Shown here: positions 659 to 62,215 of the stretch, one piece after another
How the letters are laid out: each line of letters starts with the position of its first letter
Numbering within the stretch: the first letter of the stretch is position 1
Source of the DNA: an uncultured delta proteobacterium
GTDB lineage: Bacteria; Desulfobacterota; Desulfobaccia; Desulfobaccales; 0-14-0-80-60-11
Assembly (NCBI GenBank): GCA_963812015.1
Contig: CAWETI010000002.1
Span: 128,001 to 192,000, forward strand
Length of the DNA stretch: 64,000 bases
Direction of reading: 5' to 3'
The notes under the pieces: model-generated
Seen by the model: the letters and a program-made list of their open reading frames with translations, nothing else
Told to the model about the DNA's origin: nothing
Database searches by the model: none
Translations under genes and position numbers: made by a program

Positions 659-909
659 CTGCGCGTTGAAGACGGGGCTGACCTGCCCCCACAAAACCAA
701 CCCACAAGCTATGTTAGGGGGCAGACCACCAGCCGGTTGGTTAATTTCACCTTAAACTAGCCTTTCCCATGGACCAGGGGAATATGCCGATTTATCTTTA
801 AAAAGACTCATGCGCCATTCACTCACTTATGAAATCCCGATCCGAGATCGGTAGCGCCTTTCTGAAATCCCATGGGGCGTTCAAGATTACTCGGGGAAGA
901 ATCTAAGCT

Positions 910-3937: not shown

Positions 3938-3942
3938 AGCAA

Positions 3943-3961
3943 TAATTGTACTTGATAACTA
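3943..3961. promoter_or_regulatory. Imperfect palindrome, candidate MarR operator
   Basis: TAATTGTACTTGATAACTA just upstream of the marR ATG; minus-strand TTGACA at 3979-3984. Confidence 0.45.
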
Positions 3962-4155
3962 CTAGATATATAATGACTTGTCAAAGAAATTTTCATTTTC
4001 AGCTCGGCCATCCGGTTGGATTCCCTGAGTCTGCTGCAACAGTGAGCGGTAATCTGCAATTCTCGTCATCCTTTTTTTTCAAGGGGGTGATTTTAGCGCG
4101 CCGGCTTTCTCCCTAAAATTGGTTACAATAATAACGATCAGTTTGATCACAAGAT

Positions 4156-29748: not shown

Positions 29749-30567
29749 CTAATTTGCCAATTCCAAAAGCTCCGAGATGGTCCACAGACGGTTAGTTACC
29801 CCCGCTTCCATAGCTGGGGTAACTCGAAGTGAACTATGAACCCGGACAAAGTTATAATGAGCAAAGTGAAGGGCAACCGCCGCTTTGAGATTGTCCAGCT
29901 TCTTGCTAAAGGCATTGGTTAGCCTGGTGAAGCGACGCATCTGCATCCGCATGGTAAGGTTTTGCCGTTCCACGTATGAGGTTGAGATATTGGATTTCTT
30001 GGGATTGCCGAGAATAACCGTGCGCTCCGCACTAACCACGTGCGGAGGCGAATACCTACCAGCGCCCATCGGCTCCGCTTCGTATGTTTTTACCACTTGT
30101 CCGTAGTCTATCCCTGCCCCAAAAGTGTCCTCCACGGCATCGACATAGGCTTTAAGGCCATCACTGCTTAACTGGACCCGATTATCAAGCCTACCTGAAA
30201 GATCAGAAATGAAAGCATAGACATTATCAATTGTCCGTTTCCCCACTAAATAAGATGGTATCAATTTGCTTTCTGCGTCTAGGGCCACGAACACCCATTG
30301 GTCGCCGAAATCAGGATCATCGGTATCCTTAAGATGGCGCTGTTTCTTCCCGACAAAGCACCAGATTTCGTCAACCTGAACGGTCTGGCATTTCAGGTTC
30401 TTCATATAGGAGTCCATAAGGTTAGCGCAGCCTTGCCCCACTCGATATCCAAGGCGCATGATGGTATCGCGGTGAATCCCGGTCATGCGTTCGACTGAGC
30501 GGATTGAAGCACCTTCCACCAAGGCCGCTATCGCCGTTTCCTGTTTTTCTCGCCTTAAGACATTCAT
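29749..30567 (-). CDS. IS1-family DDE transposase (single ORF, HTH, no N-terminal zinc finger)
   Basis: EGASIRSVERMTGIHRDT HTH; VQVDEIWCFVGKK, SSDG, VERQNLTMR DDE motifs; stop codon lies inside the TIR. Confidence 0.92.
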   Translation of the reverse strand: MNVLRREKQETAIAALVEGASIRSVERMTGIHRDTIMRLGYRVGQGCANLMDSYMKNLKCQTVQVDEIWCFVGKKQRHLKDTDDPDFGDQWVFVALDAESKLIPSYLVGKRTIDNVYAFISDLSGRLDNRVQLSSDGLKAYVDAVEDTFGAGIDYGQVVKTYEAEPMGAGRYSPPHVVSAERTVILGNPKKSNISTSYVERQNLTMRMQMRRFTRLTNAFSKKLDNLKAAVALHFAHYNFVRVHSSLRVTPAMEAGVTNRLWTISELLELAN

Positions 30568-30581
30568 CTCGGAATTTCCTG

Positions 30582-30610
30582 TTGACTAATGGGTAAATAC
30601 TTGCTATCTT
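30582..30610 (+). promoter_or_regulatory. sigma70 promoter antisense to the transposase leader
   Basis: TTGACT-17 bp-TATCTT with TG extension, 15 nt from the transposase ATG and pointing away from it. Confidence 0.65.
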
Positions 30611-30619
30611 GAACGAAAG

Positions 30620-30687
30620 TGGAGCGCCGGGGAATCGAACCCCGCCCGGAATGGGTGTAAGGGCCTCCTGGGAACCAATCGCGCCCC
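30620..30687 (-). ncRNA. tRNA/tmRNA-like domain in the transposase leader
   Basis: GGGGCGC-GATTGGTT-CCCAGGA..TCCGGG-CGGGG TTCGATT CCCCG-GCGCTCC-A: 7-bp acceptor with G3.U70, A73, canonical T-arm, stemless D-region, no standard anticodon loop. Confidence 0.6.
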
Positions 30688-30801
30688 ACGAATCGCCACG
30701 GCCTCATAGCCTAATCGCTGCCAACGACTACCAGGGTATGGGGCCTTGCTTTTGCGGTCCCTGCCAGGGCGATTCAAGGCCGACAGGAACCAAGTCTCTT
30801 C

Positions 30802-31296
30802 TCATATTTCACCTCCTTTTGCGGGCGGAGGCCCAACCTGAGTTGTTCTCTGAATATTCTTCCAAGTCCCCCTGCTAATGTTCTTGAAGAGTTTAGGTTT
30901 CCTTTGTAACGCACTCCTGATTACTTCCTGGGGATGATTTTGGCTTAATTTCCACCCTCTCTCCCGAAATTCAGCGACGATTTCCTTGATCTTCATGGGG
31001 CGCTTATATGTGTCAAAAATCATGGATATTCCCTTTTCGACCGGAATTTCAATGAGCTTGGTCTCCATTTTGGGTGGGATCGCGGCCGATAAATCAATTT
31101 CATCTGCAAATGGATCAATGCCCAGGTAAAGACGGTTATGAATCTGATTAATAAGAGATTTTATCCAATCACAATCGTTTTTTAGGGTCTCAAGTTTTGG
31201 TTCAAGTTCCTTAATTTCATTAAGTTTACTTTCAAGCTCATCCTCTAAGTTAGCGAGAGCCTTTGATAAACTTTGACGGGTAGCTTCTTCAAGCAT
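30802..31296 (-). CDS. Passenger gene: coiled-coil plus C-terminal winged-helix (HARE-HTH-like) protein
   Basis: ATG 31296 with GGGGGG RBS; heptad LANLEDELESKLNEIKELE..; RPMKIKEIVAEFRERGW..VIRSALQR..FKNISRGTW resembles a wHTH. Confidence 0.6.
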   Translation of the reverse strand: MLEEATRQSLSKALANLEDELESKLNEIKELEPKLETLKNDCDWIKSLINQIHNRLYLGIDPFADEIDLSAAIPPKMETKLIEIPVEKGISMIFDTYKRPMKIKEIVAEFRERGWKLSQNHPQEVIRSALQRKPKLFKNISRGTWKNIQRTTQVGPPPAKGGEI

Positions 31297-31465
31297 AAGA
31301 TGCCCCCCTATGCCGCTGTAAACTTCTTGATCTTCAAGAACTTTCCTGATATATACGAGATGCTTAATATTAGGCCATAAAATTTTATTGTCAATAAAAA
31401 AAGCGACTAAAAAAGCGAATATTTTTTTTGCGGATAGTCTATTTTTTTGAAAGCGTGGCCAGCGC

Positions 31466-31762
31466 ATGAGTAAAGGCTTAAAACATATTGTGGAGAAAAT
31501 ATGCGGTTGTCCCGCATCTTTTTTAGAAGATGTGGTTGTTGTTGAGAGCTTCGGGGGGCAAACCGTTTGGAGCGGTGTCGTATCCATTTTTAACCTCCAA
31601 GACCATCCGCAGGCCGATAAATGTTATGCTTGGTCATCTCCGATAGAGAGGAGCAGAAAGCGGAAATATTATGCCGTCCTTCATATCCCACCAATTGATT
31701 CCCCGGAAAAGGCTGTCAGGGCCTCCATTGTCCACGATCATAAGACGGAGAAATTGAATTAG
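31466..31762 (+). CDS. Passenger gene: 98-aa hypothetical protein
   Basis: Globular-looking ORF (GQTVWSGVVSIF..HP..CYAWS..AVLHIPPIDSPEKAVRA) divergent from the wHTH gene. Confidence 0.7.
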   Translation: MSKGLKHIVEKICGCPASFLEDVVVVESFGGQTVWSGVVSIFNLQDHPQADKCYAWSSPIERSRKRKYYAVLHIPPIDSPEKAVRASIVHDHKTEKLN

Positions 31763-31866
31763 CCCTACACCTTGTGATTTCCTTATTGTCAAATTGCATT
31801 GACCTATCTCCAGCGGTAAGGTGATTTTTAGATTTCATAAATATAATCTCGGGGGTTGAGTGCCTT

Positions 31867-32733
31867 ATGTCGGCAAAAAGGATATTCATCGCCCTAATAG
31901 TCTTGATTGCCGTTTCCCTTTGTCTTTCGGCATGGTCAGAACCAAATCCCAAACAGCCCATATCGCAAGGTAAAAGCGGCAAGTTGGCCGCACAGAAAAC
32001 CAGCAATCAAGAAAACCCAACCAAGAATATTGTTACCCTCCAAATACTTATTGACGCTATTTCTCGCGCAATAGACGCAAGCGCCGAGAAAGCTAAGGCT
32101 TACCAAAATCCTCCCCCACCAGATAATTCGTCGTGGTGGTTTTCCTTCTTTCTTGTGACGTTCACCGGAGTACTGGCCGCTGTTGCAATATTCCAATTCT
32201 TTGTCTTGAGAAACACTCTCAGAGAAACCCATAAAGCAGCTAGTGCCGCTAAAGACAGCGCCGATGCTCTTCCAATTATGGAAAGAGCTTATATCTTCTC
32301 CAAAGTTAAGCCTAATAGGGAAATTAACATTGCAGATAGCAGATTTGAGCCGGGTAATGGATTTGAAGCACGCCTTTATTTGAAAAATTACGGGAAAACA
32401 CCGGCTATTATAAAAGAAATTGCTTTCCAGGGGTATAGATATGATTCTCCTGTTAATGGTAAATTGGTCGTGATAAACGTTCATTATCCTCTCAAATCTT
32501 TTATAGGAAGCGGTGAAGAATTTTATGAAGATAGCCAACCCATCCCATTGACAATAGACAAGTGGATGGGTCTTATAACCATCGACCCTGAACTTTTTAT
32601 TTATTGTATTGGTTATATTAAATATGTTACGATTTTTGGTCAAGAACATTGTCATGGTTTTTGTTGGGAGTTCGACGGTCCCTCTGGCACTTTTGTATTG
32701 TCCCCAAATAATGATTTGAATTACAACATATAA
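31867..32733 (+). CDS. Passenger gene: exported/membrane hypothetical protein
   Basis: Signal peptide, one TM (WWFSFFLVTFTGVLAAVAIFQFF), beta-rich C-terminal domain (LKNYGKTPA..GYIKY..FG); low GC. Confidence 0.7.
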   Translation: MSAKRIFIALIVLIAVSLCLSAWSEPNPKQPISQGKSGKLAAQKTSNQENPTKNIVTLQILIDAISRAIDASAEKAKAYQNPPPPDNSSWWFSFFLVTFTGVLAAVAIFQFFVLRNTLRETHKAASAAKDSADALPIMERAYIFSKVKPNREINIADSRFEPGNGFEARLYLKNYGKTPAIIKEIAFQGYRYDSPVNGKLVVINVHYPLKSFIGSGEEFYEDSQPIPLTIDKWMGLITIDPELFIYCIGYIKYVTIFGQEHCHGFCWEFDGPSGTFVLSPNNDLNYNI

Positions 32734-33133
32734 AAAAAATAGAGAGTAGGCGCAGGCTTGTTTCCAGCCAAAGGGAGGGAGTGAAAATTTGCGCGGAAAC
32801 CGGCGGGAGATTTTTTTAGGGAGGGAATTGAGAAAATCCCGAAGTTTTCGGAAACAAATTAGGACAGTACCCCCGACCCCCCTGACTGAGAGATGGCCGT
32901 TAAAAGAAATTGGATGAATTTTCCTTGCTTCCTTGATATTATCGGGGCTAATTTGGTTATGATCAGAAGACCGCGGTTAAAACCCTATCAGGGTGTTGAA
33001 AAATGGGTTTTCTATCATCCTGAACGGAACGCATCTGTAATCTATTGATATAACGATGTTCTTTTCTTTGCTCGGAATGACCATGTGAAGAAATCGCTGA
33101 TTTTATGATCCTTACATAAAAGGAGGGGGGGAT

Positions 33134-34597
33134 ATGGTTCTTTGGGCCCGGATAGGGGGAGCATTGTTGGGCCTGGTCTTCTTGCTGGCGCCCTTGGCGG
33201 CCAGCGGCGCCGAGTCTCCGGTGCTGACCCTGAAACAACTTATCGACATGGCCTTGCGATACAGCCCTGCGGTCAAGGCTAGCTCCAGCGCCGTCACCCT
33301 GGCGACTGAGCAAAAGAATGAAGCCAACAGCTACCGTTGGCCACAATTCGATGCCACCGCCACCGGCGGGGTGGTCCCCAATGCCCGGCGGGGTGAGGTG
33401 CTCCAAGTCGGCCCAGATAAAACCCTCTTCTATCCTGACCCCAAAGATAAGCTCCACGGCGTGAACATCTTTGGCAACCTGACCTTCGCTCTCTATCAGC
33501 CTCTCTACACCTTCGGCAAAATCGCTTTCCGGGAAGAAGCTGCGGCCAAAAACATCGAGGTCAAAAGAGCCGGGGTGGATCTCAAGAAGGGCGAGGTCAT
33601 GATGCAGGTGGCTCAGGCGTACTACGGTCTGATCCTGGCCACCCAGGGCAAGGATGCGGTGCAGGACGCCCGTACCTACCTGGGGGATGCCCGGGAACGG
33701 ATTACCCGCCTCCTCCGCGCCAACTCGCCCAACGTCAGGGAGAGCGACCAGTATCGCCTGGCCATGTATGAGGGCGGGGTGGAAAAATTTGCCGCCCAGG
33801 CGGAAGAAGGCTCCAAGGTGGCCTACCAGGCCTTGAAGGCCCTGGTCGGCTATAACCCCAACCAGGATTTCCGGGTGCCCCAGGACCTTCCGGCCCCCAC
33901 CGCTCCGGCCGGCGGCCTGGACCACTACATCCGCCTGGCCCTGGAGCAGCGGCCCGAATTCACCCAGCTCAAACAGGGCCTGGTGGCCCGGCAATTGCTG
34001 GTGGACGCGGCCAAGGCCGACCGCTATCCGTCGTTCTTCCTGGCGGTGGTGGGCCAAGTGGCCGGGGCCCCGGGCCGGGAGTATAACCCAGACCCTTATG
34101 TTAACGACTTCTTTAATGGTGTTGGGGCCATGCCCATGGCGGGGGCCAAGTGGCACTTCGATTTCGGCATCCTGAATGCGAAAGTCGGCCAAGCCCGGGC
34201 AGAACTCGACCAACTGCGGTACACCGAAAAGCAGGCCCTCATGGGCATCCCGGTGGAAGTGGCCAGGGATTACGGCAAGGTCAAGGAAAATTACCAGGCT
34301 TCCCTGGGCATGCAGAAGGCTTATGTCAATGCCCGGCGCTGGCTGGTCACCTCATTCAGCAACTTCGACATGGGGCTGGGCAAAATGGAAGACATCTTCC
34401 AGGCCTTTGAACGGTACGGGTCCTTCCGGGGCGACTACCTCACGACCCTCTATGAATACAACCTGGCGGTGGCCCAGCTGGACAAGTCCTCCGGCGCCTT
34501 CCGGCAGAATCTGCCGGCTGATGACAAACCGGCAAAAGACATCACGCCGAGCCGGGTCCAGCCCGTGAGCGCCCCGGCCCCTGCTACGGCCAAATAG
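33134..34597 (+). CDS. TolC family outer membrane protein
   Basis: Signal peptide; LTLKQLIDMALRYSP; QPLYTFGK; ALEQRPE; YEYNLAVAQL. Confidence 0.85.
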   Translation: MVLWARIGGALLGLVFLLAPLAASGAESPVLTLKQLIDMALRYSPAVKASSSAVTLATEQKNEANSYRWPQFDATATGGVVPNARRGEVLQVGPDKTLFYPDPKDKLHGVNIFGNLTFALYQPLYTFGKIAFREEAAAKNIEVKRAGVDLKKGEVMMQVAQAYYGLILATQGKDAVQDARTYLGDARERITRLLRANSPNVRESDQYRLAMYEGGVEKFAAQAEEGSKVAYQALKALVGYNPNQDFRVPQDLPAPTAPAGGLDHYIRLALEQRPEFTQLKQGLVARQLLVDAAKADRYPSFFLAVVGQVAGAPGREYNPDPYVNDFFNGVGAMPMAGAKWHFDFGILNAKVGQARAELDQLRYTEKQALMGIPVEVARDYGKVKENYQASLGMQKAYVNARRWLVTSFSNFDMGLGKMEDIFQAFERYGSFRGDYLTTLYEYNLAVAQLDKSSGAFRQNLPADDKPAKDITPSRVQPVSAPAPATAK

Positions 34598-37252: not shown

Positions 37253-40030
37253 TTATTCCTCCAAGACCTGGCGGCAGCGGGCGCACACTTGAGGATGACG
37301 GGGATCTTCCCCTACCCCTGGGTAACGGAACCAGCAGCGGATGCATTTCTCCCCGGCCGCCGGCGCCACGGTTAGCGAGAGCCCCGGAATCTCTTGCGAT
37401 TCCTGGCCCCCCAGGGTTTGGGCCTCCACCCGGAGTTCCGCCACCTGGGCCAGGGTTTTAAGTTCTGCCGTCTGAGACTTTAGCTTAGCATAAAGTTGGT
37501 CATCCATCGTCCCCAAAATGACCGCGGCCTCCTGGGCCGTGGCCAGGCGCTTCTCCTTCCGGCCCTCTTCCAGCCCCCGGTTGATTTCGCCCCGCACTTT
37601 GAGTAAAAAGTCGTACTTGGCCAGCAAGGCCTCGTCGGGAAAGCCCGGGGGCGGCGAGGGCAAGGCCCCCAGATGCACGCTCTCAGGGCGGCCGGCCCCG
37701 GGGATATGCTCCCAGATCTCGTCGGCGGTAAAGGAAAGGATGGGGGCCATGGCCAGGGTGAGGCCCTGAAGCAGATCGTGTAACGTGCTCTGGGCGCTGC
37801 GGCGTTCCCTGGAATCAGCTTTCGAAATGTAGAGGCGGTCCTTCAAGATGTCCAGATAGATGGCGCTGAGCTCCACCGCGCAGAACTGGTGGAGGCGGTG
37901 GAAGGCCTGGTGGAATTCGTAATCCTCGTAGGCCTTTTTGACCCGGGCCAGCAACTGGGCCAGCCAGGACAGGGCCAGGCGGTCCAGCTCCTCCCGGGAG
38001 CCTGGCTCCAACCAGTGCCGCTCCGGGTCGAAGTCGGAGAGGTTGCCCAGCATGAAACGGGCGGTATTGCGGAAACGCCGGTAGGCGTCGGCCAGTTGCT
38101 TCAGGATGTCAGGCGACAGCCGAACGTCATCCCGATAGTCCTCCGCCGCCACCCAGAGCCGCAGGATCTCGGCGCCGTATTTATCCATGACTTCCTGGGG
38201 GGCGATGACGTTGCCCAGGGACTTGGACATCTTGCGGCCGTCGCCGTCCACCACGAAGCCATGGGTCAGCACCCCTTTATAAGGGGAGTGGCCCCGGGTG
38301 CCCACACAGGTCAGGAGGCTGCTGTGAAACCAGCCCCGGTGCTGGTCCGAGCCCTCCAGGTAGAGATCGGCGGGCAGCGCCAGGTCCGGGTCGGGTTCCA
38401 CCACCGCGGCCCAACTCACCCCGGAATCGAACCAGACGTCCAGGATGTCCGTCTCTTTTTTGAAGTCGGAGGCGCCGCAGGCGCACACCGTTCCCGGAGG
38501 CAGCAGGTCGGAGGCGGGAGTGTCGAACCAAAAATCCGCGCCCTCATGGCGTACCCGCTGGATAATACCCTGAAGAATCTCGGGCGTCAGCAGCACCTTG
38601 CCACATTCCCGGCAGTGAAAGGCCACAATGGGCACGCCCCAGGCCCGCTGGCGGGAGATGCACCAGTCCGGGCGCCGTTCCACCATCTGGTAGATGCGCT
38701 CCCGGCCCCAGCGGGGAATCCAGGTGACCCGGTCGATGGCCGCCAGGGCCTTCTGTCTGAGATCGTTGGCCTCCATGGAGATGAACCACTGCTCCGTGGC
38801 CCTAAAGATGATGGGCTGCTTGCAGCGCCAGCAGTGGGGGTAGCTGTGGGTCAGGTCCGCCGCCGCCAGGAGCTTGCCGCGCTCTTTGAGGAGTGCGATG
38901 ATGCCGGCGTTGGCGTCCAAGACCTTTTGTCCGGCAAATTCCGGCACTTCCTGGGTGAACCGGCCGCCGTCGTCCACCGGCGAATAGGGGGCAAGGTTGT
39001 ACTTGCGACCGCTGTCATAGTCCTCCTGGCCGTGCCCCGGGGCGATGTGCACCAGGCCGGTACCCGCCTCCAGGGTAACGTAGTTCGCCAGGATGACCTG
39101 GGAGTCCCGGTCCAGCCAGGGGTGGCGGCAGACCGCGCCCTCCAGTTGACGCCCCTTGACCTGGAGGATTTCTTGCCCCTTAAGCCCCCAAAGGCTCAGC
39201 AAACCCGGGGCCAAATCCCCGGCCACCACCAAAACTTCGGTCCCCAGGTCCACGGCGACGTACTCCAGGTCCGGGTGGGCCGCGATGGCCAGATTCGCCG
39301 GCAACGTCCAGGGCGTGGTGGTCCAGATCACCAGTGAGATTTTTTCGTAAGTGTCCAACTCCGGCACTTGCTCGGGGGCTTTAGATAGAGGAAACTTGAC
39401 GTAGATGGTGGGGGTGCGGTGGTCCTCATATTCCACCTCGGCCTCGGCCAGGGCAGTGCGGCAGGTGGCGCACCAGTGAATCGGTTTTTTGCTCCGGTGG
39501 ATGGCGCCGCTGAAGAAGAACTGGCCATATTCTTCCAGGATTTCGGCTACGTAGGCGTGGCGCATGGTGAGGTAGGGATGGTCCCAGTTGCCCAGCACCC
39601 CCAGGCGCTTGAATTCGGCGCGCTGGATGTCGACGAACTTTTCGGCGTAGGCCCGGCAGCGCTGACGGACCTCCACTTTGGACAATCTCACGCCTTTGGC
39701 CTTCAGTTCCTTGTCCACCTGGTGCTCGATGGGCAGGCCGTGGCAATCCCACCCCGGCACATAGGGGCTATCGAAGCCCGTCATCTGACGGGACTTGACG
39801 ATGATGTCCTTGAGGATCTTGTTTAAGGCGTGCCCCAGGTGAATGTGGCCGTTGGCATAGGGGGGGCCGTCGTGAAGGATAAACTTGGGGCGCCCCTTAC
39901 TCTGGGCCCTGATCTTGCCGTATAGGTCCATCTCGGCCCAGCGTTTCAGGAACAACGGTTCCCGCCGGGGCAGATCGGCTTTCATGGGAAAATCGGTGCG
40001 GGGCAGGTTTAGGGTCGCTTTATAATCCAT
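37253..40030 (-). CDS. ileS: Isoleucine--tRNA ligase (type 1)
   Basis: [31 protein letters not shown]-terminal KCIRCW..CARC. Confidence 0.98.
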
Positions 40031-41819: not shown

Positions 41820-43622
41820 CTAGGGGTTCATGGTGTACTTCTGTTCCCCCTTGGGGACGTACCATTTAATGAAGTCATAGTCGATGCCGGCTGGCGCCGG
41901 TTTGATGCCCCGGAAGCGCCGGGAGATGGCAGGCAGGGCGTCGGGCACGAAGAGGAAGGTGTAGGGCTGGTCCTCGGCCAGGATTTGCTGGAAACGGAAG
42001 TAAGCCTGGCGCCGTTTTTCCCGGTCGAAGGTGTGGCGACCCTCGGCCAACAAGGCGTCCACTTCGGGGTTCTTATAGCCGATGACATTGAGCTCGCCGG
42101 GCTTGGTCTTGGTGGAACTCCAGATGTCGAACTGGTCCGGGTCCAGGCCGGTGTTCCAGCCCAACAGGATCGCCTCGAACCGCCCCTTTTGGATGAATTC
42201 CTTGATGAAGGCGGCCCACTCTACGGTGCGGATCTTCACCACGATACCGATCTGCCGCAGACGGCGCTGGATGATTTCGGCGGTGCGCTGCCGGATGTCG
42301 TTGCCCTGGTTGGTGAGGATGGTGAACTCAAAGGGGCGGCCGTCTTTAGTGAGGATCCCCTCGGCATTAGGCTGCCAGCCGACTGCGGCCAGGAGGGCCT
42401 TGGCCCTGGCCGGATCGTAGGCAAATTTGGGCACGTCGGGATTGTAGTACCAGATGCCGGGCTTATAAGGACCATAGGCTTCCTCGCCCAGGCCCATGAG
42501 CACTCCCTCGATGATCTCCTTTTTGTTGATGGCCAGGGTCATGGCCTGGCGCACCCGCCGGTCGGCGAACCGCGAATCGTTCAGGTTGTATCCCAGATAG
42601 ATGTAAGAGAAGGGCATGTAGCGATACTTTTTAAACAGACGATGGAACTTGGGATACTCCGTCTGCCGGGAATATTGCAGGGGGGCGAGGTTCATGCGGT
42701 CGAGGTTGCCGGCCTTCAACTCCAGAAACATGGTGGCCAGGTCGGGCTTCACCAGATAGAGGTAGCCGTTGAGATAGGGGCGGCCTTCGAAGTAGTTGGG
42801 GTTGTAAGCCAGGGCGATCTTCTCTCCGGCCCGCCACTCCTTGAAGATATAGGGGCCGGTGCCGACCGGGTGCCGCCCCAGGGGGGACTTGGTGATGTCC
42901 TGGCCCGCTAACAGGTGCTGGGGCAGGATGGACAGGCCCCAGGAGCCCAGGGCGGGGGCGAAGGGCTGGGGATAGGTGACCCGGAAGGTATAGTCGTCCG
43001 GGGCCTCAGCCTTTTTCACCTGGAGATAGTCTCCGGAATAGGCGGTGGGGGTTTTGGGGTCCACCATCACCTGGTAGGTGAACAACACGTCTTTGGCCGT
43101 GAAGGGGGCGCCGTCGTGCCATTTGACCCCATGGCGCAGGTGGAAGGTGATGGTGAGCCCGTCCGGGGAGATGTCCCAGCTCTCGGCCAGGTCTCCCACC
43201 AGGTTGAGGTCGCCGTCATATTTGACCAGACCGTTGTAGATCAGGCCGATGATGCTGGCCGAGGACGAATCCATGGCCAGGGGCGGGATTAAGGTGCTGG
43301 CGTCGCCGATGGAGGCGTCAAGAAAGAGGTCGCCGTAAGCCGGGCCGGTGTCCGGGCCGCCGTAGATCGGTTCGTCTTTCTCGGACTTGCAGCCGGCGGA
43401 TAGCAGGGCGAAGACGATCAGGCAGATGATGAGATATCGCCAATCGAGATACGGCGACTGGCTGATTCGGGTTGACCTGATGGTGCGGCATGCGGGAAGC
43501 CTCCCCCTCCCCTCGGTGGGAGGGGGTTGGGGGGAGGGGGATTCTTTCTTCAGACAATTCCATGCCAATTTTGTTTCACCCCCACCCTGACTCTCCCCCA
43601 TCCAGGGGGAGGGAATGGTCAC
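41820..43622 (-). CDS. ABC peptide-binding lipoprotein (SBP family 5, AppA-like); start uncertain
   Basis: Lipobox LSAGC; LAESWDISPDGLTITFHLRHGVKWHDG; PVGTGPY; the called start 43700 overlaps the tRNA, so the real start must be lower. Confidence 0.85.
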   Translation of the reverse strand: MTIPSPWMGESQGGGETKLAWNCLKKESPSPQPPPTEGRGRLPACRTIRSTRISQSPYLDWRYLIICLIVFALLSAGCKSEKDEPIYGGPDTGPAYGDLFLDASIGDASTLIPPLAMDSSSASIIGLIYNGLVKYDGDLNLVGDLAESWDISPDGLTITFHLRHGVKWHDGAPFTAKDVLFTYQVMVDPKTPTAYSGDYLQVKKAEAPDDYTFRVTYPQPFAPALGSWGLSILPQHLLAGQDITKSPLGRHPVGTGPYIFKEWRAGEKIALAYNPNYFEGRPYLNGYLYLVKPDLATMFLELKAGNLDRMNLAPLQYSRQTEYPKFHRLFKKYRYMPFSYIYLGYNLNDSRFADRRVRQAMTLAINKKEIIEGVLMGLGEEAYGPYKPGIWYYNPDVPKFAYDPARAKALLAAVGWQPNAEGILTKDGRPFEFTILTNQGNDIRQRTAEIIQRRLRQIGIVVKIRTVEWAAFIKEFIQKGRFEAILLGWNTGLDPDQFDIWSSTKTKPGELNVIGYKNPEVDALLAEGRHTFDREKRRQAYFRFQQILAEDQPYTFLFVPDALPAISRRFRGIKPAPAGIDYDFIKWYVPKGEQKYTMNP

Positions 43623-43672
43623 GTTGTCTTTTCTCTTGCCCCGGCTGTCGGTTTTGGATACATTTAACAAGT

Positions 43673-43749
43673 CGGGACGTGGCTCAGCCTGGTAGAGCAC
43701 AGCGTTCGGGACGCTGGGGTCGGAGGTTCAAATCCTCTCGTCCCGACCA
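43673..43749 (+). tRNA. tRNA-Pro(CGG)
   Basis: CGGGACG acceptor, GCTC-AGCCTGGTA-GAGC D-arm, CAGCG-TTCGGGA-CGCTG anticodon arm, GGAGG-TTCAAAT-CCTCT T-arm, encoded ACCA. Confidence 0.97.
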
Positions 43750-43823
43750 TCTTCCCGGGGCGGTAAGCAAAAAATTACCACTCAATCCTCCCTGAAACCA
43801 GCTTTTTCCCCCAGCCGGAGCCT

Positions 43824-44069
43824 TCATCTCAGAATATCCTGTTTCATCCGCTCGAACTCGTCTTGGCTGATCTCCCCTTTGGCATAGCGCTTTTTCAGGA
43901 TATCCAGGGCGGTCTCGTTCTCAGGACCGGGGCCGGGTGGCCAGGTGCGACCGGAGCGATTGCGGCCGAAGATGCGGTAGAGGACGAAGATAATGACCCC
44001 GAGCCAGAAGATGGGCATGATGATGGGGAAGAACCACAGGTGCCATTGCCAGTAATGTTCGGGGTACAT
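43824..44069 (-). CDS. SHOCT domain membrane protein
   Basis: TM followed by ALDILKKRYAKGEISQDEFERMK. Confidence 0.88.
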   Translation of the reverse strand: MYPEHYWQWHLWFFPIIMPIFWLGVIIFVLYRIFGRNRSGRTWPPGPGPENETALDILKKRYAKGEISQDEFERMKQDILR

Positions 44070-44194
44070 GACTGACCTCTTATGGCCACAGGCGAGACGC
44101 CTATGCTACCATTCTTAAAGGGTTGGGAGGGGGTGCGGGGGAGGGCAGGGACTCGCGTCCCTGGCCCTTCCCCGCAATCACCCTGATCTTCCCC

Positions 44195-46507
44195 TCAACT
44201 CCGCCGGCGCCAGCGGGGGCCCCCGGGGGAATCGGTGATATCGATGCCCCGGGCGGCCAGTTCATTCCGGATCTGATCCGCGGTCTGCCAGTCCCGGCCC
44301 CTCCGGGCCTCTTCCCGGGCCCGCAGCGCCGCCTCGATGGTCTCATCCCCGGCCTCCGCCGCCGGCGCCAGGTTCATGATCCCCAAGACTTCGTCCAGTT
44401 CCTGGAAGCGGGCCAGGATGGCGGCCGCGCCGGCATGCCCCAGCTGGCCGTGGTCGAGGTCGGTGTGAAATTCCCCCACCGCCCCAAAGAGGGCCGACAG
44501 GGCCCGGGAGATGTTGAGGTCGTCGTCCAGGGCGGTGATAAACTCTTTTTTCAGCAGGAAGAGACGTTCTTCCACGGCCGGGGTGACGGGGGCCTCGCCG
44601 GTTGCCAGGGCGAGGCGTTCCAGGAAGTGGTCCAGGCGGGCCCGGGCCACGGCTGCGGCCTTGAGGTTGGTGTCGCTGAGGGCCAGGGGCTTGCGGTAGT
44701 GGGCCGCCAGCAGGAAGTGGCGCACCTCTTCCCCCTGGTAGCCCTGGGACATCAGGTCCCGCACCGTCACGACGCCCGCCTCTTTCAAGGGCCGGCCGTC
44801 CCTCAGGACCCGCTCGCAGTGGAGCCAGACGTTGGCCATGGGTTTGCCCGTGGCCGCGGTGAAGATGGCGTTTTCGTTCTCATCGTGGGGAAAGAGCGAT
44901 TCCACGCTGCCCACGTGGAAATCCACGGAGGTGCCCGGGTGTTTCAGGGCCATGGCGGCGGACTCCAGGTGCCAGCTGGGGCGCACCTGACCCCAGGGGG
45001 TGGTGTAGTAGAGCCCTTTTTTCAGTTCCGCCAGCTTGGCGCGTTTCAACAGGGTGAAATCCCGGGGATTGTCCTTGGCGTACTCGTCCAGGTCCACGGT
45101 TTTGCCCACCCGGATCTTGCTCAGGTCCACCCCGGAGAGACGCCCGTAGTCCTTGAAGCGGGAGATGTCGAAATAAACGGAGCGCAGTTTTTCATAGGCG
45201 TAGCCCCGCTCCAGGAGCTTCCGGGTGAGGTCGACCATGTCGTCGATGTGTTCGGACGCCAGGGGATAGAGGACGCCCCCCTGGAGGCGCAGGTCTTCGG
45301 CGTCCCGGAAGAATTCCTGCCGGAAGTGCCCGGTGAAGGCTGCCAAGTCCTGGCCCGCGGCCGCGGCCCCGGCCAGGGCCCGGTCGTCCAGGTCGATGAG
45401 GCTCACCACCTGGCGGACCTTGAAGCCCCGGAAGTTGAGGTAGCGGTGGAGCAGGTCGGCCACCACCAGGCGGCGGGCCACCCCCAGGGAGAGATGGCCG
45501 TAGAGGGCCGGACCGTCGGCGAAAATCGCAGCCTCACCAACGCGCCGGGGCTCGAAGGCCTCCTTGCTCCGGGCCAGGGTGTTGTAAAAGCGGAGGGTGG
45601 GGGCCTCCTTTTCGGTGAACAGGGTAGTGGAGAGGTAGCGTTCGCCGCCATCAGGGGCGATAACCACGATGAGGCCGCTTTCTAACTCCCGGGCCTTGCG
45701 GATGGCCACGGCCACCGCGGCGCCGGAGCTCATGCCCAGGAACAGGCCTTCCTGGCGGGCCAGGCGCCGTGCGGTCTCGTAACCCTCTTCGTCCTCGATG
45801 TTGACAATCTCGTCGGCCTTGGTCTTGTCGAAGATCCCCGGCTTATAGGACTCCTTCATATTTTTCAGGCCCTGGAGGGCATGGCCCAGGAACGGCTCCA
45901 CGCCCACGATGCGGATGTCGGCATTGAACCGCTTCATGCCCGCATACAGGCCCATGAGGGTGCCGGTGGTGCCCATGGTGGCCACCACCATGGTGACCTT
46001 GCCTTCGGTCTGGTCCCAGATCTCCCGGCAGGTGGACTCGTGGGACCGGGGGTTGACGGGGTTGTTGAACTGGTCCGCCAGGAAATACTTGTCCGGATGT
46101 TCCCGGGCCATCCGGTAGACCTCTTCGATGGCGCCGTCGGTGCCCAGGTGGGCCGGGGTCAGGAGGAGTTCAGCCCCCATGCCCTTGAGGATGCGTTTCC
46201 GCTCCAGGCTGGCGGACTCGGGCATGGTCAGGAGCAGGCGGTAGCCCTTGACCGCGCAGACCATGGCCAGACCGATGCCGGTATTGCCGCTGGTGGCCTC
46301 GATGATGGTCTTCTCCGGGGTCAGTTCCCCGGAGGCTTCCGCGGCCTCGATCATGGCCAGGGCCGGGCGATCCTTGACGGAGCCCCCAGGATTGAAATAC
46401 TCCAGTTTGAGGTAAATCTTCACCTGGGGATGGGGGTTGAGACGGTTCAGGCGGACAATGGGGGTCTGCCCGACGAGCTCCAGTATGTTATTGGCCTTGC
46501 GTGACAT
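44195..46507 (-). CDS. Cysteine synthase (CysK/M) fused to a degenerate cysteinyl-tRNA synthetase domain
   Basis: N-half: NPGGSVKDR (PLP Lys), ATSGNTG, GTTGT, GMSSGA; C-half collinear with CysRS but C28>D, HIGH>SLGV, C209>S, KMSKS>PLKEA. Confidence 0.9.
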   Translation of the reverse strand: MSRKANNILELVGQTPIVRLNRLNPHPQVKIYLKLEYFNPGGSVKDRPALAMIEAAEASGELTPEKTIIEATSGNTGIGLAMVCAVKGYRLLLTMPESASLERKRILKGMGAELLLTPAHLGTDGAIEEVYRMAREHPDKYFLADQFNNPVNPRSHESTCREIWDQTEGKVTMVVATMGTTGTLMGLYAGMKRFNADIRIVGVEPFLGHALQGLKNMKESYKPGIFDKTKADEIVNIEDEEGYETARRLARQEGLFLGMSSGAAVAVAIRKARELESGLIVVIAPDGGERYLSTTLFTEKEAPTLRFYNTLARSKEAFEPRRVGEAAIFADGPALYGHLSLGVARRLVVADLLHRYLNFRGFKVRQVVSLIDLDDRALAGAAAAGQDLAAFTGHFRQEFFRDAEDLRLQGGVLYPLASEHIDDMVDLTRKLLERGYAYEKLRSVYFDISRFKDYGRLSGVDLSKIRVGKTVDLDEYAKDNPRDFTLLKRAKLAELKKGLYYTTPWGQVRPSWHLESAAMALKHPGTSVDFHVGSVESLFPHDENENAIFTAATGKPMANVWLHCERVLRDGRPLKEAGVVTVRDLMSQGYQGEEVRHFLLAAHYRKPLALSDTNLKAAAVARARLDHFLERLALATGEAPVTPAVEERLFLLKKEFITALDDDLNISRALSALFGAVGEFHTDLDHGQLGHAGAAAILARFQELDEVLGIMNLAPAAEAGDETIEAALRAREEARRGRDWQTADQIRNELAARGIDITDSPGGPRWRRRS

Positions 46508-46548
46508 AGCGGCATCCAAACTCCTGGCTTTGGCGGTGAAGCAAAGGA

Positions 46549-46839
46549 TTAAGCCCCTTCCTCCTTACCCGTGGCGCCGCACTCCTCCTGGTTCTCCATT
46601 TCTTCGGCCAGGTAATTATTGATCAGGTTAATCAGGGTGAGGACGAAAAACCGGCGGGCCTCGGGCTCGTCATGCATCACTTCCATGAGGCGGTAAACCA
46701 GGGACAGGACTACCAGCCCCGCCTGGGAAGGTGACACATCTTCCTGGTTGAAGCGCTCCAGAATCTCATTCACCAGGGGACGGACGCTCTCCTCCAACGC
46801 GGCATCGCTGGTGAAGGCGGCGGTATCGATTTTGGTCAT
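46549..46839 (-). CDS. Small acidic helical hypothetical protein, probably cotranscribed with the CysK-CysRS fusion
   Basis: AAGGA RBS; 96 aa; stop lies about 40 nt upstream of the fusion start. Confidence 0.65.
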   Translation of the reverse strand: MTKIDTAAFTSDAALEESVRPLVNEILERFNQEDVSPSQAGLVVLSLVYRLMEVMHDEPEARRFFVLTLINLINNYLAEEMENQEECGATGKEEGA

Positions 46840-47119
46840 GGCTTGATCCTTGGGGTTTCCTAAAACTCTTTAATTATAAGGAAAAACCTACCATATTCCC
46901 CGGCGGTTTGCAAACTTCGGGGGCAGGGTCCGGCGCGGGAAGCCGGGGCAGAGGGCGCAGGGCGAGGACCACCCACCTGCCAGACCGGCCAGGGGCCAAA
47001 ATGCTGTTTAATTTTCCCGCCAGGACGTTTATCAATCTTTACCCGCGTTCATAAAAAAATAATGCAAGTTAAATAATAAGAGCCTTAATTAATTAGATTA
47101 ATGTGAACAATTCTCTCAA

Positions 47120-47135
47120 TGGTACGGTCTTTGCT
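47120..47135 (+). promoter_or_regulatory. sigma54 (-24/-12) promoter
   Basis: TGGTAC-GGTCT-TTGCT matches TGGYAC-N5-TTGCW; AT-rich upstream region. Confidence 0.65.
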
Positions 47136-47243
47136 TTTATTAATAACGTGAGTCGCGCCCGGTGGGGCGCCTGGCTGTCTGTCACGAAACCGGAACGACC
47201 ACAATGCTTTTGCGAGCCCCCCAATTGATCATGTTGAGGTTTG

Positions 47244-47510
47244 ATGATGAAAGATAAATCGGACACCCCCCCGAGTTTTCTCAAGATGGAGCAGGCCCGG
47301 AAGTTGATGGATCAAGGTCATCATCATGAGTCCCTGGTCCTGGCTTTGGAGGTGCTGCTACAAGAATTGGACTCCCTGCGGGATTCTCTCCTGGCCCTGC
47401 AGATGGCGACCCGGTCGGAATACCAGACCTTTACCCCAGATATCCCGGAAGAACATCCCCAACCCGACCATTACTGGCTGCCGGCAGTCAAACCTCGAGT
47501 TTTGCATTGA
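47244..47510 (+). CDS. Small hypothetical protein
   Basis: GAGG RBS; helical or coiled-coil core. Confidence 0.55.
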   Translation: MMKDKSDTPPSFLKMEQARKLMDQGHHHESLVLALEVLLQELDSLRDSLLALQMATRSEYQTFTPDIPEEHPQPDHYWLPAVKPRVLH

Positions 47511-47877
47511 GTCAGGGCAGTGATCACGGCTCTTGCGCCTGCCTCGGCCAAGCTCCCGCCCCGGATTATTTTCAAGAAAATAGGACTGTTGCTCTCCCCC
47601 GGGAGGCGCCTCGGGGTTAGTTGATGGTCGGGGCCACCGCGGCGGGGGGAACAGCCCCGGACCGCCGGCATGGCCAGGCCGCCCCACCCGGATCACGGGA
47701 GCCGGTACCACCCGCCTTATCAGGCCAGCATCACCCTGCAAGGGATGGCGGGGCTCTGAACTCCTCTCAGTGCCGCGGGCTCCGGAGATTGCCTCCCGCT
47801 TCCCTTTTTGTTAAACTAAAACGGCCTGCCGTTCCTGTCGGGGCGGAAGGCCTAATTTCTTTTCGGGACCCCTGGCC

Positions 47878-49095
47878 TTGTCTCCTGATCTCGAGAAACT
47901 CCGCATTCAACGCCCGGAGGGAGAGCGCCCAGTGGCGTCCTCCTCCCGAAGCCGGATTATCATCATGGTCCTGGGGGCAGCCCTCTTGGGCTTCGTAGGG
48001 CTCTACCTCTGGGGTCCACTCCAACCGGCGGCGGAAATTACCACCGCGGTGGCGGCCCGCCTCTATCCGGCCCAGGCCTACACGGTTTTAAACGCCAGCG
48101 GCTATGTGGTGGCCCAACGCAAGGCGGCGGTTTCCTCCAAGAGCACCGGCCGGTTATCTTTCCTGGGGGTGGAGGAAGGCAGCCGGGTCAAGAAGGGGCA
48201 GATTCTGGCCTCCCTGGAGAATGAGGACCTGATCGCCTCCCGGAACCAAGCCATCGCCCAGGTGAAGCAGGCCGAGGCCGACCTGGGCACCGCCCAGGCG
48301 GAGCTGGTGGACGCCGCCCTCCAGTATCGCCGTTATAAAACCCTGGTGGCTCAGGACCTCATTCCCAAGCAGGACTTTGACTCCGCCGACGCCCGGGACA
48401 AGAAGGCCAAGGCCGGGGTGGCCGCGGCCCAGGCCCGGATCAAGGTGGCCCGGGCCGGCCTGGCCAATACCCAGGCGGGCCTGGAATACACCTACATCCG
48501 CGGCCCCTTCGACGGGGTGGTGACCACCAAATATGCCGAGGTGGGGGAAGTGGTGGCCCCCTTCGGCGCCGCGGCCAATGCCCGGGCCGCGGTGGTGACC
48601 ATGGCCGACCTGAACTCCCTGATGGTGGAAGTGGATGTGGCGGAGTCCAACCTGGATAAGGTGCGCCTGGGTCAACCCGGTGAAATCTCCCTGGACGCCA
48701 TTCCCGACCGGCGCTTTGCCGGCGAGGTGCACATGATTGTGCCCACCGCCGACCGGACCAAGGCCACTGTGCTCACCAAGGTGAAATTTCTGGAGACGGA
48801 TGACCGCATCCTCCCGGAAATGAGCGCCAAGGTGGCCTTTCTCAGCAAATCCCTGGAGCCTGGGGCCCGCCAGCCCCGCCTGACCATCCCCAAGGGCGCC
48901 CTCCTCACCCGGGACGGCCGCGCCGAGACCTCCCTGGTGGCCGGCAACCGGGTGAAACTGGTCCCCATTACCCCGGGCCTCACCATGAACGACCTGGTGG
49001 AGGTCGCCGGCGGCCTCAAGGAAGGGGACCGGGTGGTCTTGAACCCGCCCGCCTCCTTGAAGGACGGCTCTCGGGTGAAAGTCAAAGAGTCATGA
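47878..49095 (+). CDS. Periplasmic adaptor (MFP) of ABC exporter
   Basis: LNASGYVVAQRKAAVSSK.TGRL, IRGPFDGVV, IVPTADRTKATV. Confidence 0.9.
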   Translation: MSPDLEKLRIQRPEGERPVASSSRSRIIIMVLGAALLGFVGLYLWGPLQPAAEITTAVAARLYPAQAYTVLNASGYVVAQRKAAVSSKSTGRLSFLGVEEGSRVKKGQILASLENEDLIASRNQAIAQVKQAEADLGTAQAELVDAALQYRRYKTLVAQDLIPKQDFDSADARDKKAKAGVAAAQARIKVARAGLANTQAGLEYTYIRGPFDGVVTTKYAEVGEVVAPFGAAANARAAVVTMADLNSLMVEVDVAESNLDKVRLGQPGEISLDAIPDRRFAGEVHMIVPTADRTKATVLTKVKFLETDDRILPEMSAKVAFLSKSLEPGARQPRLTIPKGALLTRDGRAETSLVAGNRVKLVPITPGLTMNDLVEVAGGLKEGDRVVLNPPASLKDGSRVKVKES

Positions 49096-61287: not shown

Positions 61288-61962
61288 TCATGGCCGCCAC
61301 AGGAGAAACGGCGCGCCGGTGCGGTTCAGCCACCGGCGGCGGGCGGCGTAGTCCGGCAAGACCTTGGCCACCTGGCCCCAGAAGCGGGGGTTGTGCCCCG
61401 GGACCTTAAGGTGCGCCAGTTCATGGACGATCACGTAGTCGATGACCTCCGGGGGGCACATGATCAGGCGCCAGTTGAATTTGAGGGTGCCGTCGGGATG
61501 GCATTCGCCCCAGCGCCGCTTCCACTCCTTGAGCGTAACCGGGCCCGGCGTCAGGCCCATGGAGGTCCCGAAATGGCTTACCCGCTCCTGAAGCAGCCGA
61601 AAGGCGCGCTCCGCGTACCAGGCGACCAAACGGGACCAGAGATCGGCCCCTTCCGGCAGAGGCACCCGGATCTCTTTACCGTTTAAGGTCACGGCTCCCT
61701 GCCCGCCCCTAAGTACCGTGAGCCGGAACGGCTGTCCCAGGAAGTAGGCCTCCCCCTCCTTGAGGCGGTTCCAGGCCGCTTGCCTTTCCGCCACCTTGGC
61801 CTCGATCCAGGCCCGGTGTTTGGAGAGGGCTAGGGCGAGGCTCTCTTGGGAGGTTCCCCGGGGTAGGCTGACCACCACCCGGCCCTCGTTGGTGACCATG
61901 AGGCCGATGCTTTTCCGCCGGGGGCTGAGGCGGTATTCGATGTCCAGGTCGTCGAATTTCAT
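61288..61962 (-). CDS. YgjP/DUF45 SprT-like zinc metallohydrolase
   Basis: RWGEC, FNWRLI, IDYVIVHELAHL..HNPRFW. Confidence 0.9.
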   Translation of the reverse strand: MKFDDLDIEYRLSPRRKSIGLMVTNEGRVVVSLPRGTSQESLALALSKHRAWIEAKVAERQAAWNRLKEGEAYFLGQPFRLTVLRGGQGAVTLNGKEIRVPLPEGADLWSRLVAWYAERAFRLLQERVSHFGTSMGLTPGPVTLKEWKRRWGECHPDGTLKFNWRLIMCPPEVIDYVIVHELAHLKVPGHNPRFWGQVAKVLPDYAARRRWLNRTGAPFLLWRP

Positions 61963-62215
61963 TATTTTATTATCGCATAGAAAGTTATCGCAGGGGCGAA
62001 CCCAGGTGGGCCCATTTTACGGCGGACACGCTTAAATCCGCCCCTTCATCCCTAATCCCGTCGAACAGCCAAATAAAAAGGGCGGATTCAGTCTGGGCTG
62101 AAAGCCCGGGCTCAATCCGCCCCGTAAGGGGTTGGGAGGGGGGCTAAGAGGGGGGCAGGGACACTTACGAAAAATACGAAAAACTCCCTGGCCCTCCCCC
62201 TTAATCTCTTCGCTC

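Follow-up and report, generated by a model that had tools for sequence, protein, structure and literature searches.

A cysteine synthase fused to a degenerate cysteinyl-tRNA synthetase paralogue in an uncultured Desulfobaccales bacterium

Introduction

Regulatory pseudo-synthetases are few, with HisZ and the HisRS-like domain of GCN2 as the textbook cases, and none derived from cysteinyl-tRNA synthetase (CysRS) is listed in the accessible parts of a 2022 review (PMC9437257). HisZ is described there as a dead HisRS paralogue that acts as the regulatory subunit of the ATP phosphoribosyltransferase HisG and mediates allosteric feedback on histidine synthesis (PMC9437257), and the HisRS-like domain of GCN2 binds uncharged tRNA and thereby switches the kinase, according to the accessible part of a further source (PMC4335047). 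The only CysRS paralogues named in the same parts of the review are CysRS* and MshC; CysRS* of the Desulfobacterales is an active enzyme without the anticodon-binding domain, coupled to SelC*/SelB* (PMC9437257). Here, we describe a gene at 44195..46507 in a 64,000-nucleotide stretch of DNA, hereafter the window, from an uncultured delta proteobacterium of the order Desulfobaccales (contig CAWETI010000002.1, positions 128,001 to 192,000). It encodes a cysteine synthase fused to a CysRS-like body whose catalytic signatures are replaced, and the latter probably serves as a built-in sensor or regulator responding to tRNA-Cys, as judged from its sequence.

No description of a CysK-CysRS fusion was found in the literature searched, the coverage of which excludes subscription journals, and the accessible parts of PMC2922099, PMC8762117, PMC5424206, PMC5388404 and PMC9437257 do not mention one. 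The identity of tRNA-Cys lies mainly in its anticodon and U73 (PMC9976931, accessible part).

Results

Architecture of the fusion gene

A sequence-only reading of the window had proposed a cysteine synthase joined to a catalytically dead CysRS in one unbroken open reading frame (ORF). The frame is indeed unbroken: the product from the ATG start, P0001, has 770 aa and zero internal stops, and an alternative TTG start at 46519 would give an ORF at 44195..46519 (minus strand) of 774 aa. The gene and its parts are:

44195..46507, minus strand: whole fusion gene; ATG at 46507, 770 codons, stop at 44195-44197; full-length homologues have 767-771 aa
45608..46507, minus strand: CysK/CysM-type cysteine synthase half, residues 1-300, placed by PALP, TIGR01136 and the CysM structure match
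45203..45595, minus strand: first half of the CysRS-like Rossmann fold, residues 305-435, with D331, SLGV 340-343, I371 and RALA 376-379, placed by the 8qhp and 1li5 alignments
44993..45202, minus strand: connective polypeptide (CP) domain, residues 436-505, with the conserved family-specific insert L-x-E-L-K-K-G, from nonsynonymous divergence (dN) and conservation
44588..44992, minus strand: second half of the Rossmann fold and SC fold, residues 506-640, with WHLES (Cys209 to S516), FPHDENE and a PLKEA loop replacing KMSKS
44363..44587, minus strand: helical bundle / DALR_2 domain, residues 641-715, including the DDDLN motif (Pfam DALR_2, 4.6e-08)
44198..44362, minus strand: anticodon-binding domain, residues 716-770, with R731, R735, D744, R747 and D759 (Pfam CysS_C, 1.4e-09)

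The Pfam domains of P0001 are PALP (residues 9-286, 2.4e-71), tRNA-synt_1e (320-618, 4.4e-63), DALR_2 (655-711, 4.6e-08) and CysS_C (721-767, 1.4e-09). The pyridoxal phosphate (PLP) lysine and the two loops that had been read from the sequence of the N-terminal half were confirmed as Lys45 within GGSVKDR (41-47), TSGNT (72-76) and GTTGT (179-183). This half scores 362.6 bits against the NCBIfam cysKM model (TIGR01136), above its cut-off of 344.15, and in the predicted structural model it matches the CysM structures 2jc3/2v03/2bhs with a template-modelling score (TMt) of 0.95. A scan for relatives with one genome per species gave 582 stretches encoding a relative, from which 80 loci were kept; the S-x-K-D-R, TSGNT and GTTGT motifs were found in 79/79 of the loci that cover them. 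By these features, the N-terminal half is an intact-looking, CysM-like PLP-dependent cysteine synthase, the motifs of which fit free amino acids as substrates.

Replaced residues in the CysRS-like half

The CysRS-like half begins at residue 305 (nt 45595), in agreement with the border of about 45600 drawn earlier, and aligns end to end with the solved CysRS 8qhp (E 4e-81), sharing 34% identity with canonical CysRS. Residues were mapped by alignment to 8qhp, 3tqo and E. coli 1li5, the last of which provides the E. coli numbering. Each of the catalytic replacements that had been listed from the letters alone was recovered in these alignments. YVCG has become FADG (Cys28 to D331), HIGH has become SLGV (340-343), and KIIK (K73-I-I-K76) has become RALA (376-379). 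Asn66-x-Thr68 now reads Ser-Leu-Ile, with Thr68 replaced by I371, and the GGxD ribose motif is likewise replaced. WHIEC is found as WHLES (Cys209 to S516) and KMSKS as PLKEA, and PHHENE has become PHDENE by replacement of His235 by Asp, with His234 (H541) and Glu238 (E545) retained. Trp205 and His206 are also kept alongside His234 and Glu238. We take Cys28, Cys209, His234 and Glu238 to be the zinc ligands of the enzyme and Thr68 to bind substrate in the cysteine pocket; in the 1li5 alignment, two of the four ligands (Cys28 and Cys209) are gone, as is Thr68.

The pseudo-synthetase assignment thus holds, with all ATP-site and cysteine/Zn-site signatures replaced. The NCBIfam cysS model (TIGR00435) is covered from position 1 to 465 of 466, and the score of 296.8 bits falls below the cut-off of 340. 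The AlphaFold model has a predicted local distance difference test (pLDDT) value of 88.8, and its CysRS-like half matches 8qhp with a TMt of 0.91 and the CysRS chain of the tRNA complex 1u0b with 0.84. A comparison of net charge was uninformative, with a pI of 6.6 for this half and 5.8 for real CysRS. The C-terminal 60% of the protein is a CysRS paralogue that, by its residues, is predicted to be no longer an enzyme, and the database label 'cysteine--tRNA ligase' is almost certainly wrong for this protein.

The genuine CysRS and the cysteine genes of the host

The host genome comprises 3.96 Mb in 6 contigs and is 99.86% complete. It carries a separate canonical cysS (G000:C3:1801989-1803455, 541.9 bits), and this gene keeps Cys28 (YACG), HLGH, KIIR, WHIEC, PHHENE and KMSKS. 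Charging of tRNA is done by this genuine cysS.

The fusion is the sole match over the cysKM cut-off in the genome, the next PALP match being a threonine ammonia-lyase (ilvA). No cysE was found in the host genome, where the best match reaches 24.8 bits against a cut-off of 210.65, and neither was SepRS (sepS; 24.6 against 380.65 bits) nor SepCysS (36 against 365.25 bits). As neither SepRS nor SepCysS exceeds its cut-off, the earlier suggestion of SepCysS-like tRNA-dependent sulfhydrylation or editing was not borne out. O-acetylserine is doubtful as a donor, since the genome has no cysE. Adjacent cysK and cysE-like genes were observed in both same-genus genomes and in three more of the family (e.g. 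G046:C28:61651-63137 and G251:C9:27360-28847). The state of the host genome itself, with no cysE or stand-alone cysK, suggests that the classical pathway was recently lost or gained.

Two tRNA-Cys(GCA) genes were found, both with U73 and differing at 10/75 positions in the anticodon stem and variable loop:

G000:C2:1262187-1262261: tRNA-Cys(GCA)
G000:C3:882330-882404, complement: tRNA-Cys(GCA), second copy

Each of the two same-genus genomes has one copy, and the second was found in neither. A dedicated second tRNA-Cys was considered as a partner of the fusion and rejected: in a BLAST search of 151 genomes, 136 gave a tRNA-Cys match but only 10/136 a second one, and 4/10 of these lack the fusion. 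No extra tRNA-Cys gene accompanies the fusion. The genome has one tRNA-Sec, at the extreme end of contig C4 (G000:C4:18351-18448, ARAGORN). Another ARAGORN match is a tRNA-like gene of 96 nt (G000 1704362-1704457, complement, on contig C2 or C3), the anticodon of which has four bases (ggtg) and to which no amino acid is assigned.

Selection on the CysRS-like half

Values of dN and of omega, the ratio of nonsynonymous to synonymous divergence, were calculated by the Nei-Gojobori method for 8 pairs among six genomes of the same family, each genome supplying both its fusion and its genuine cysS. The CysK/M half has an omega of 0.04-0.20. For the CysRS part, omega is 0.15-0.32 in the fusion versus 0.09-0.22 in the genuine cysS, and dN is 0.074-0.225 versus 0.061-0.192. 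Neutral decay of the CysRS-like half is ruled out because its omega lies close to that of the genuine cysS from the same genomes; the dead half is under purifying selection and almost as constrained as the essential gene.

The constraint is unevenly spread over the domains. The CP domain, with a dN of 0.006-0.09 versus 0.04-0.19 in the genuine cysS, is the most conserved part of the whole protein (74% of positions at least 95% conserved), and it contains the family-specific conserved residues D447, T470, L473, R489, L492, L495, K496 and G498 as well as the conserved four-residue insert within L-x-E-L-K-K-G. The KMSKS-loop segment is somewhat relaxed (dN 0.05-0.20 versus 0.03-0.13), and in both genes it is the anticodon-binding domain that evolves fastest (0.16-0.42 versus 0.095-0.32). 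Relic pocket segments are highly conserved in this clade, namely VSLIDLDDRA, VRPSWHLE and FPH[DE]ENE. The earlier claim that the CP segment, the DDDLN bundle and the anticodon-binding tail are all well preserved is right for the CP domain and for the key residues of the tail, and needs refining for the fast-evolving tail as a whole.

These key residues were examined in a 67-row alignment of fusions that takes in the most decayed members and an archaeal fusion. The invariant columns of the CysRS-like half lie in the CP domain, at a few positions of the Rossmann core and in the anticodon-binding domain. In the last, R731, D744, R747 and D759 are kept in 67/67 fusions and R735 in 65/67, with Lys in the other 2. 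In the 1li5 alignment these five correspond to E. coli R423, R427, D436, R439 and D451, positions that are 88-100% conserved in canonical CysRS, and several of them presumably contact the GCA anticodon in the E. coli 1u0b complex. The conservation extends to the fusions P0126 and P0127, despite the loss of three zinc ligands in these proteins. Retained recognition of tRNA-Cys is plausible because these residues are kept in 65-67 of the 67 fusions.

Distribution of the fusion and graded loss of the active site

A word-indexed search listed 120 clusters of close homologues at 72-97% identity. All 120/120 are fusions of 687-782 aa with PF00291 and PF01406, those with a name are from Desulfobaccales, and all CysRS domains are retained in every one. 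Related fusions do carry CysRS annotations, as had been stated: they appear as 'cysteinyl-tRNA synthetase' at JGI and as 'cysteine synthase' or 'cysteine--tRNA ligase' at NCBI/UniRef. UniRef assigns one of these proteins to Desulfobacca acetoxidans.

Motif states were compared across three sets, namely these 120 Desulfobaccales fusions, a further 63 fusions and 50 canonical CysRS. In the two fusion sets, HIGH lacks its first His, KMSKS lacks its second Lys and final Ser, Gln548 is gone, and the derived residues T470, V508, S418 and L487 are shared. Further losses are seen in the Desulfobaccales set only: Cys28 is replaced by Asp in 99%, Thr68 by Ile in 100% and Asn66 by Ser in 99%, and neither His235 nor the K-M of KMSKS is retained; the replacement residues D331 (99%), I371 (100%) and S369 (99%) are accordingly fixed among the 120, and S340 is found in 87%. 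In the 79 loci of the relative scan that cover the position of Cys28, Asp was found in 13/79, all from Desulfobaccales and close kin, and Cys in 66/79. The cysteine/Zn pocket is intact in the 63 other fusions (C28 100%, T68 100%, W205 95%, C209 97%, H234 100%, E238 98%). The replacement of Cys209 by Ser, which had been counted among the catalytic losses, is real in this protein but peculiar to its lineage; it appears to be a recent, lineage-specific change because Cys209 is retained in 70% of the Desulfobaccales set. At the far end are P0126 (WP_126381224.1, from an organism named Desulfovibrio ferrophilus) and P0127, where three of the four zinc ligands are missing. The motifs describe a graded decay, in which most members lack the ATP motifs only and the Desulfobaccales form also lacks the cysteine/Zn pocket. 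P0001 represents, but for P0126/P0127, the most decayed form in a phylum-wide family, the other members of which keep the cysteine pocket.

A sample of 301 Thermodesulfobacteriota genomes of at least 90% completeness, including that of the host, was searched for the genes concerned. The fusion (E <= 1e-120) was found in 122/301 genomes, including 12/12 of the same order; 4/122 matches are partial or split (G239, G066, G012 and G193). A cysS over the cut-off is present in 298/301, and 121/122 fusion genomes have at least two cysS-like matches when the two result tables are read side by side, the exception being G146 (95% complete). The fused domain is thus a paralogue beside the housekeeping cysS throughout the sampled phylum. 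A cysE-like gene (E <= 1e-30) was found in 197/301 genomes and a CysK/M (E <= 1e-60) in 297/301. As a description rather than a test, the genomes being mutually related, 59 of the 122 fusion genomes have the fused CysK/M only and no cysE-like gene, 56 have a second cysK and a cysE-like gene, and 7 are mixed. The classical cysK and cysE pair is gained or lost as a unit while the fusion persists, as the two genes lie side by side within the host's own family (e.g. contig 28 of G046, 61651-63137). Evidently, to judge from these gene contents, the synthase of the fusion works without CysE.

Origin of the fusion

Trees of the CysRS-like part were built with FastTree (75 rows) and with IQ-TREE under LG+G4 (39 rows). 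In the latter, 20/21 fusions formed one clade together with three stand-alone paralogues, P0136, P0138 and P0149, with a Shimodaira-Hasegawa-like approximate likelihood ratio test (SH-aLRT) value of 99, and the fusion clade is nested among canonical CysRS of the HIGN type. The basal stand-alone relatives P0136, P0138 and P0149, and also P0122, keep HxGx and KMSRS-like motifs. P0125, a 768-aa CysK-CysRS fusion from a metagenome-assembled genome of Nanoarchaeota, has fully canonical CysRS motifs and groups with the canonical enzymes; a single clade of all fusions was rejected by the approximately unbiased (AU) test (p 6e-54), for a group chosen after the tree was seen. CysK and CysRS have thus been fused at least twice, since P0125 groups with the canonical enzymes, and the bacterial fusion arose once and then lost its catalytic site step by step.

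Neighbourhood, RNA features and expression

Two features adjoin the fusion gene:

46549..46839, minus strand: conserved small ORF of 96 aa upstream of the fusion; same-position homologues in 6 related loci at 38-61% identity
44115..44198, minus strand: G+C-rich hairpin directly 3' of the stop codon; RNA fold -56.9 kcal/mol, z -4.0 against 200 shuffles

The product of the small ORF is acidic and helical, and the ORF lies on the same strand as the fusion, 30-40 nt upstream of it; Desulfobaccales copies have about 85-120 aa. No Pfam or NCBIfam family was assigned to it, and all clusters returned by a protein atlas were labelled 'hypothetical protein' and came from the same phylum. The ORF is a possible partner of the fusion that is specific to this clade and confined to Desulfobaccales. 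A Pfam survey of neighbours took in 150 flanking ORFs at 38 loci, from 159 ORFs at 40 loci available, and found neighbours that differ by clade: one clade has glmS and DUF3786, others have DciA and glnA or NrfD, and Desulfobaccales have only the small ORF. In the clade of 56%-identical fusions, the upstream small ORF encodes a different, Cys-rich protein (CPDC..CQGC..C..C, zinc-ribbon-like; L022:3714-3989, L025:3650-3994, L026:3632-3976 and L028:2839-3120), which is preceded by glmS, and a DUF3786 gene directly follows the fusion.

The transcription unit likely ends at the hairpin. Rfam detected neither a riboswitch nor a T-box in 43000-48000, and a promoter and terminator scan performed at chance level. 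With 43700-47000 divided into 30 bins, 20-26 of these are covered by contigs from RNA libraries (67-338 nt, 95-99% identical, from four runs), which span both fusion halves and the 96-aa ORF; the contigs derive from close relatives and may include DNA carry-over, and are a weak hint of expression in these relatives.

Further neighbours in the window are a tRNA-Pro(CGG) gene at 43673-43749 (plus strand), a small SHOCT-domain membrane protein at 43824-44069 (minus strand) and an ileS-lspA-lgt cluster at 37253-40030 (minus strand). A family 5 solute-binding protein is encoded further downstream of the fusion, as it is in three related loci. The segments 1-4000 and 30001-34000 of the window have a G+C content of 0.46-0.51, compared to about 0.60 elsewhere in the window, and may be islands of foreign DNA.

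Discussion

The reading that we favour, with a probability of roughly 0.45, is that the CysRS-like half, itself non-catalytic, binds tRNA-Cys and regulates a cysteine synthase that is independent of CysE, in a way comparable to HisZ or to the GCN2 domain. The dead CysRS domain would still bind tRNA-Cys via its GCA anticodon, the relic active site at the CCA end would read the amount or charging state of this tRNA, and the signal would set the activity of the attached synthase. The latter would catalyse the committed step in making cysteine, a step not otherwise regulated, since the feedback-controlled serine acetyltransferase that normally acts upstream is missing when CysE is absent; O-phosphoserine or serine would then take the place of O-acetylserine as the serine donor.

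Several points weigh against this reading. Omega is highest in the anticodon-binding domain (0.12-0.71), a pattern also seen in the genuine cysS, and the contact of its five conserved residues with GCA is presumed from the E. coli complex, their conservation being what was computed. The hyper-conservation of the CP domain might just as well reflect a surface for protein-protein contact. No dedicated tRNA-Cys gene was found with the fusion in the BLAST search of 151 genomes, and the 150 ORFs at 38 loci hold no neighbour shared across the family and none pointing to tRNA biology. The pocket is lost here but kept in most relatives, so the shared function of the family may differ from that of this member. 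With a predicted template-modelling score (pTM) of only 0.61 and a low-confidence linker at residues 300-302, the model leaves the contact of the two halves unsettled. An O-phosphoserine donor has the missing cysE as its one argument, and a serC_1-type gene does not exceed the cut-off in the host genome (37 against 443.6 bits). Binding of tRNA, allostery and enzyme activity are all predictions.

The main rival is a CP-centred scaffold role, in which the CysRS-like body would be a structural or docking relic that does not bind RNA and is kept for folding of the synthase, oligomer assembly or docking of a partner, e.g. via the CP domain or the small upstream protein. It would account for the CP domain being the most constrained (dN 0.006-0.09), with family-specific residues and an insert of its own, for the fast evolution of the anticodon domain, for the failure to find a tRNA partner gene and for the conserved small ORF adjoining the gene in Desulfobaccales. 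However, a mere scaffold needs none of the four anticodon-domain residues that are invariant in 67/67 fusions even where the active site is unrecognisable. The full set of CysRS domains is also found in 120/120 listed close homologues, and we regard this role as rather unlikely.

A HisZ-type sensor of cysteine or another metabolite, which would bind free cysteine or a similar thiol in the relic pocket and exert feedback inhibition on the fused synthase with no involvement of tRNA, is less probable again. Such a sensor would fit the 63 other fusions, in which the pocket is intact (95-100% per position) and HIGH and the second KMSKS Lys are already gone, as well as the high conservation of the relic pocket segments in this clade, and HisZ works in this manner (PMC9437257, accessible parts). 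In P0001, however, Cys28 is Asp, Thr68 is Ile and Cys209 is Ser, which makes thiolate-zinc recognition unlikely; the P0126/P0127 branch lacks three of the four zinc ligands, and the invariant anticodon-domain residues would be left unexplained. Cysteine sensing is possible for the majority that keep the pocket and unlikely for this protein.

Chemistry on the tRNA itself would have the pseudo-CysRS hold tRNA-Cys while the PLP domain converts Sep- or Ser-tRNA-Cys to Cys-tRNA-Cys, or edits it. A PLP enzyme is here joined to a body that would read tRNA-Cys, the genome lacks cysE, and the relic active site, where the CCA end is expected, is conserved. Against this, SepRS and SepCysS were not found, leaving no known mischarger of tRNA-Cys, the TSGNT loop for the carboxylate of a free amino acid is invariant in 79/79 covering loci, the fusion is the only CysK/M of the genome and so must supply free cysteine, and a genuine CysRS is present; we consider such chemistry highly improbable. 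An equally speculative form of it would be a third route of cysteine formation on or beside the tRNA, with the anticodon held by the CysRS body and the 3' end reaching the PLP domain, where the cysteinyl group would be formed or repaired on a seryl or phosphoseryl precursor or on a persulfidated Cys-tRNA, in sulfide-rich anaerobes without CysE. If true, it would be a so far unknown way of making cysteine. The lack of a known mischarging enzyme, the intact loops for free amino acids in the PLP domain and the genuine CysRS weigh against it too, and we give it very little credence. The channelling to a canonical CysRS that had also been suggested is without support.

That the protein is a working, unconventional second CysRS and its 'cysteine--tRNA ligase' label right is hardly credible, as the end-to-end homology (E 4e-81 to 8qhp) and the HxGx and KMSRS-like motifs kept by P0136, P0138, P0149 and P0122 stand against the replacement of HIGH, KMSKS, the GGxD ribose motif, Cys28, Thr68 and Cys209, a cysS score below the family cut-off and a canonical cysS in 298/301 genomes of the phylum.

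The fusion is present in about 40% of the sampled genomes of a sulfate- and sulfur-cycling phylum, and about half of the carriers have no other recognisable cysteine synthase, nor was a serine acetyltransferase found in them. The fusion is thereby the place to look for how these organisms make cysteine and control its synthesis. The Desulfobaccales form is an informative extreme, having lost the ATP site and the cysteine pocket and kept the anticodon-reading residues; because it lost the one and kept the other, its sequence suggests that the ligand common to the whole family is tRNA and not the amino acid.

Comparison with known systems

Canonical CysRS (TIGR00435; E. coli 1li5/1u0b, archaeal-type 8qhp) and the CysRS-like half share the order of Rossmann fold, CP domain, SC fold, helical bundle and anticodon-binding domain, 34% identity and a TMt of 0.84-0.91, with His234, Glu238, Trp205 and the anticodon-domain residues kept. 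In contrast to the canonical enzyme, HIGH, KMSKS, KIIK, Cys28, Thr68 and Cys209 are replaced here, the family score is below the cut-off, and the domain is fused behind a cysteine synthase as a second copy beside the real cysS. The N-terminal half resembles the O-acetylserine sulfhydrylases CysM/CysK (TIGR01136; 2jc3, 2bhs) in its PLP lysine, asparagine loop, glycine loop, score and TMt (0.95), but carries a C-terminal CysRS-like body of 470 aa and is found in a genome without a detected serine acetyltransferase.

The described CysRS paralogues differ more clearly. CysRS* is not fused to CysK, and P0001, unlike it, has CysS_C at 721-767. MshC is an ATP-dependent ligase that is likewise not fused to CysK, and the match of P0001 to its model (TIGR03447) reaches 130 bits against a cut-off of 485. 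The SepRS/SepCysS system is similar in that cysteine formation is joined to tRNA-Cys, but neither of its genes was found in the genome, and the PLP enzyme here is of the PALP / CysK-CysM type, i.e. of another PLP family.

The closest parallels are the two regulatory pseudo-synthetases. Like HisZ, the CysRS-like half is a paralogue, predicted to be catalytically dead, that is physically joined to the biosynthetic enzyme of its own amino acid. HisZ has no anticodon-binding domain, and it senses the free amino acid. It is also a separate subunit, whereas here the domain is fused, the anticodon-binding domain is kept and the amino-acid pocket is altered. The HisRS-like domain of GCN2 is, like the domain described here, a pseudo-synthetase fused to an effector enzyme, and switching by tRNA is proposed for P0001 from residue conservation. 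GCN2 is eukaryotic, its domain is class II-derived and binds many tRNAs, and its effector is a kinase; in P0001, by comparison, the domain is class I-derived and presumably specific for tRNA-Cys, and the effector is the amino acid's own synthase.

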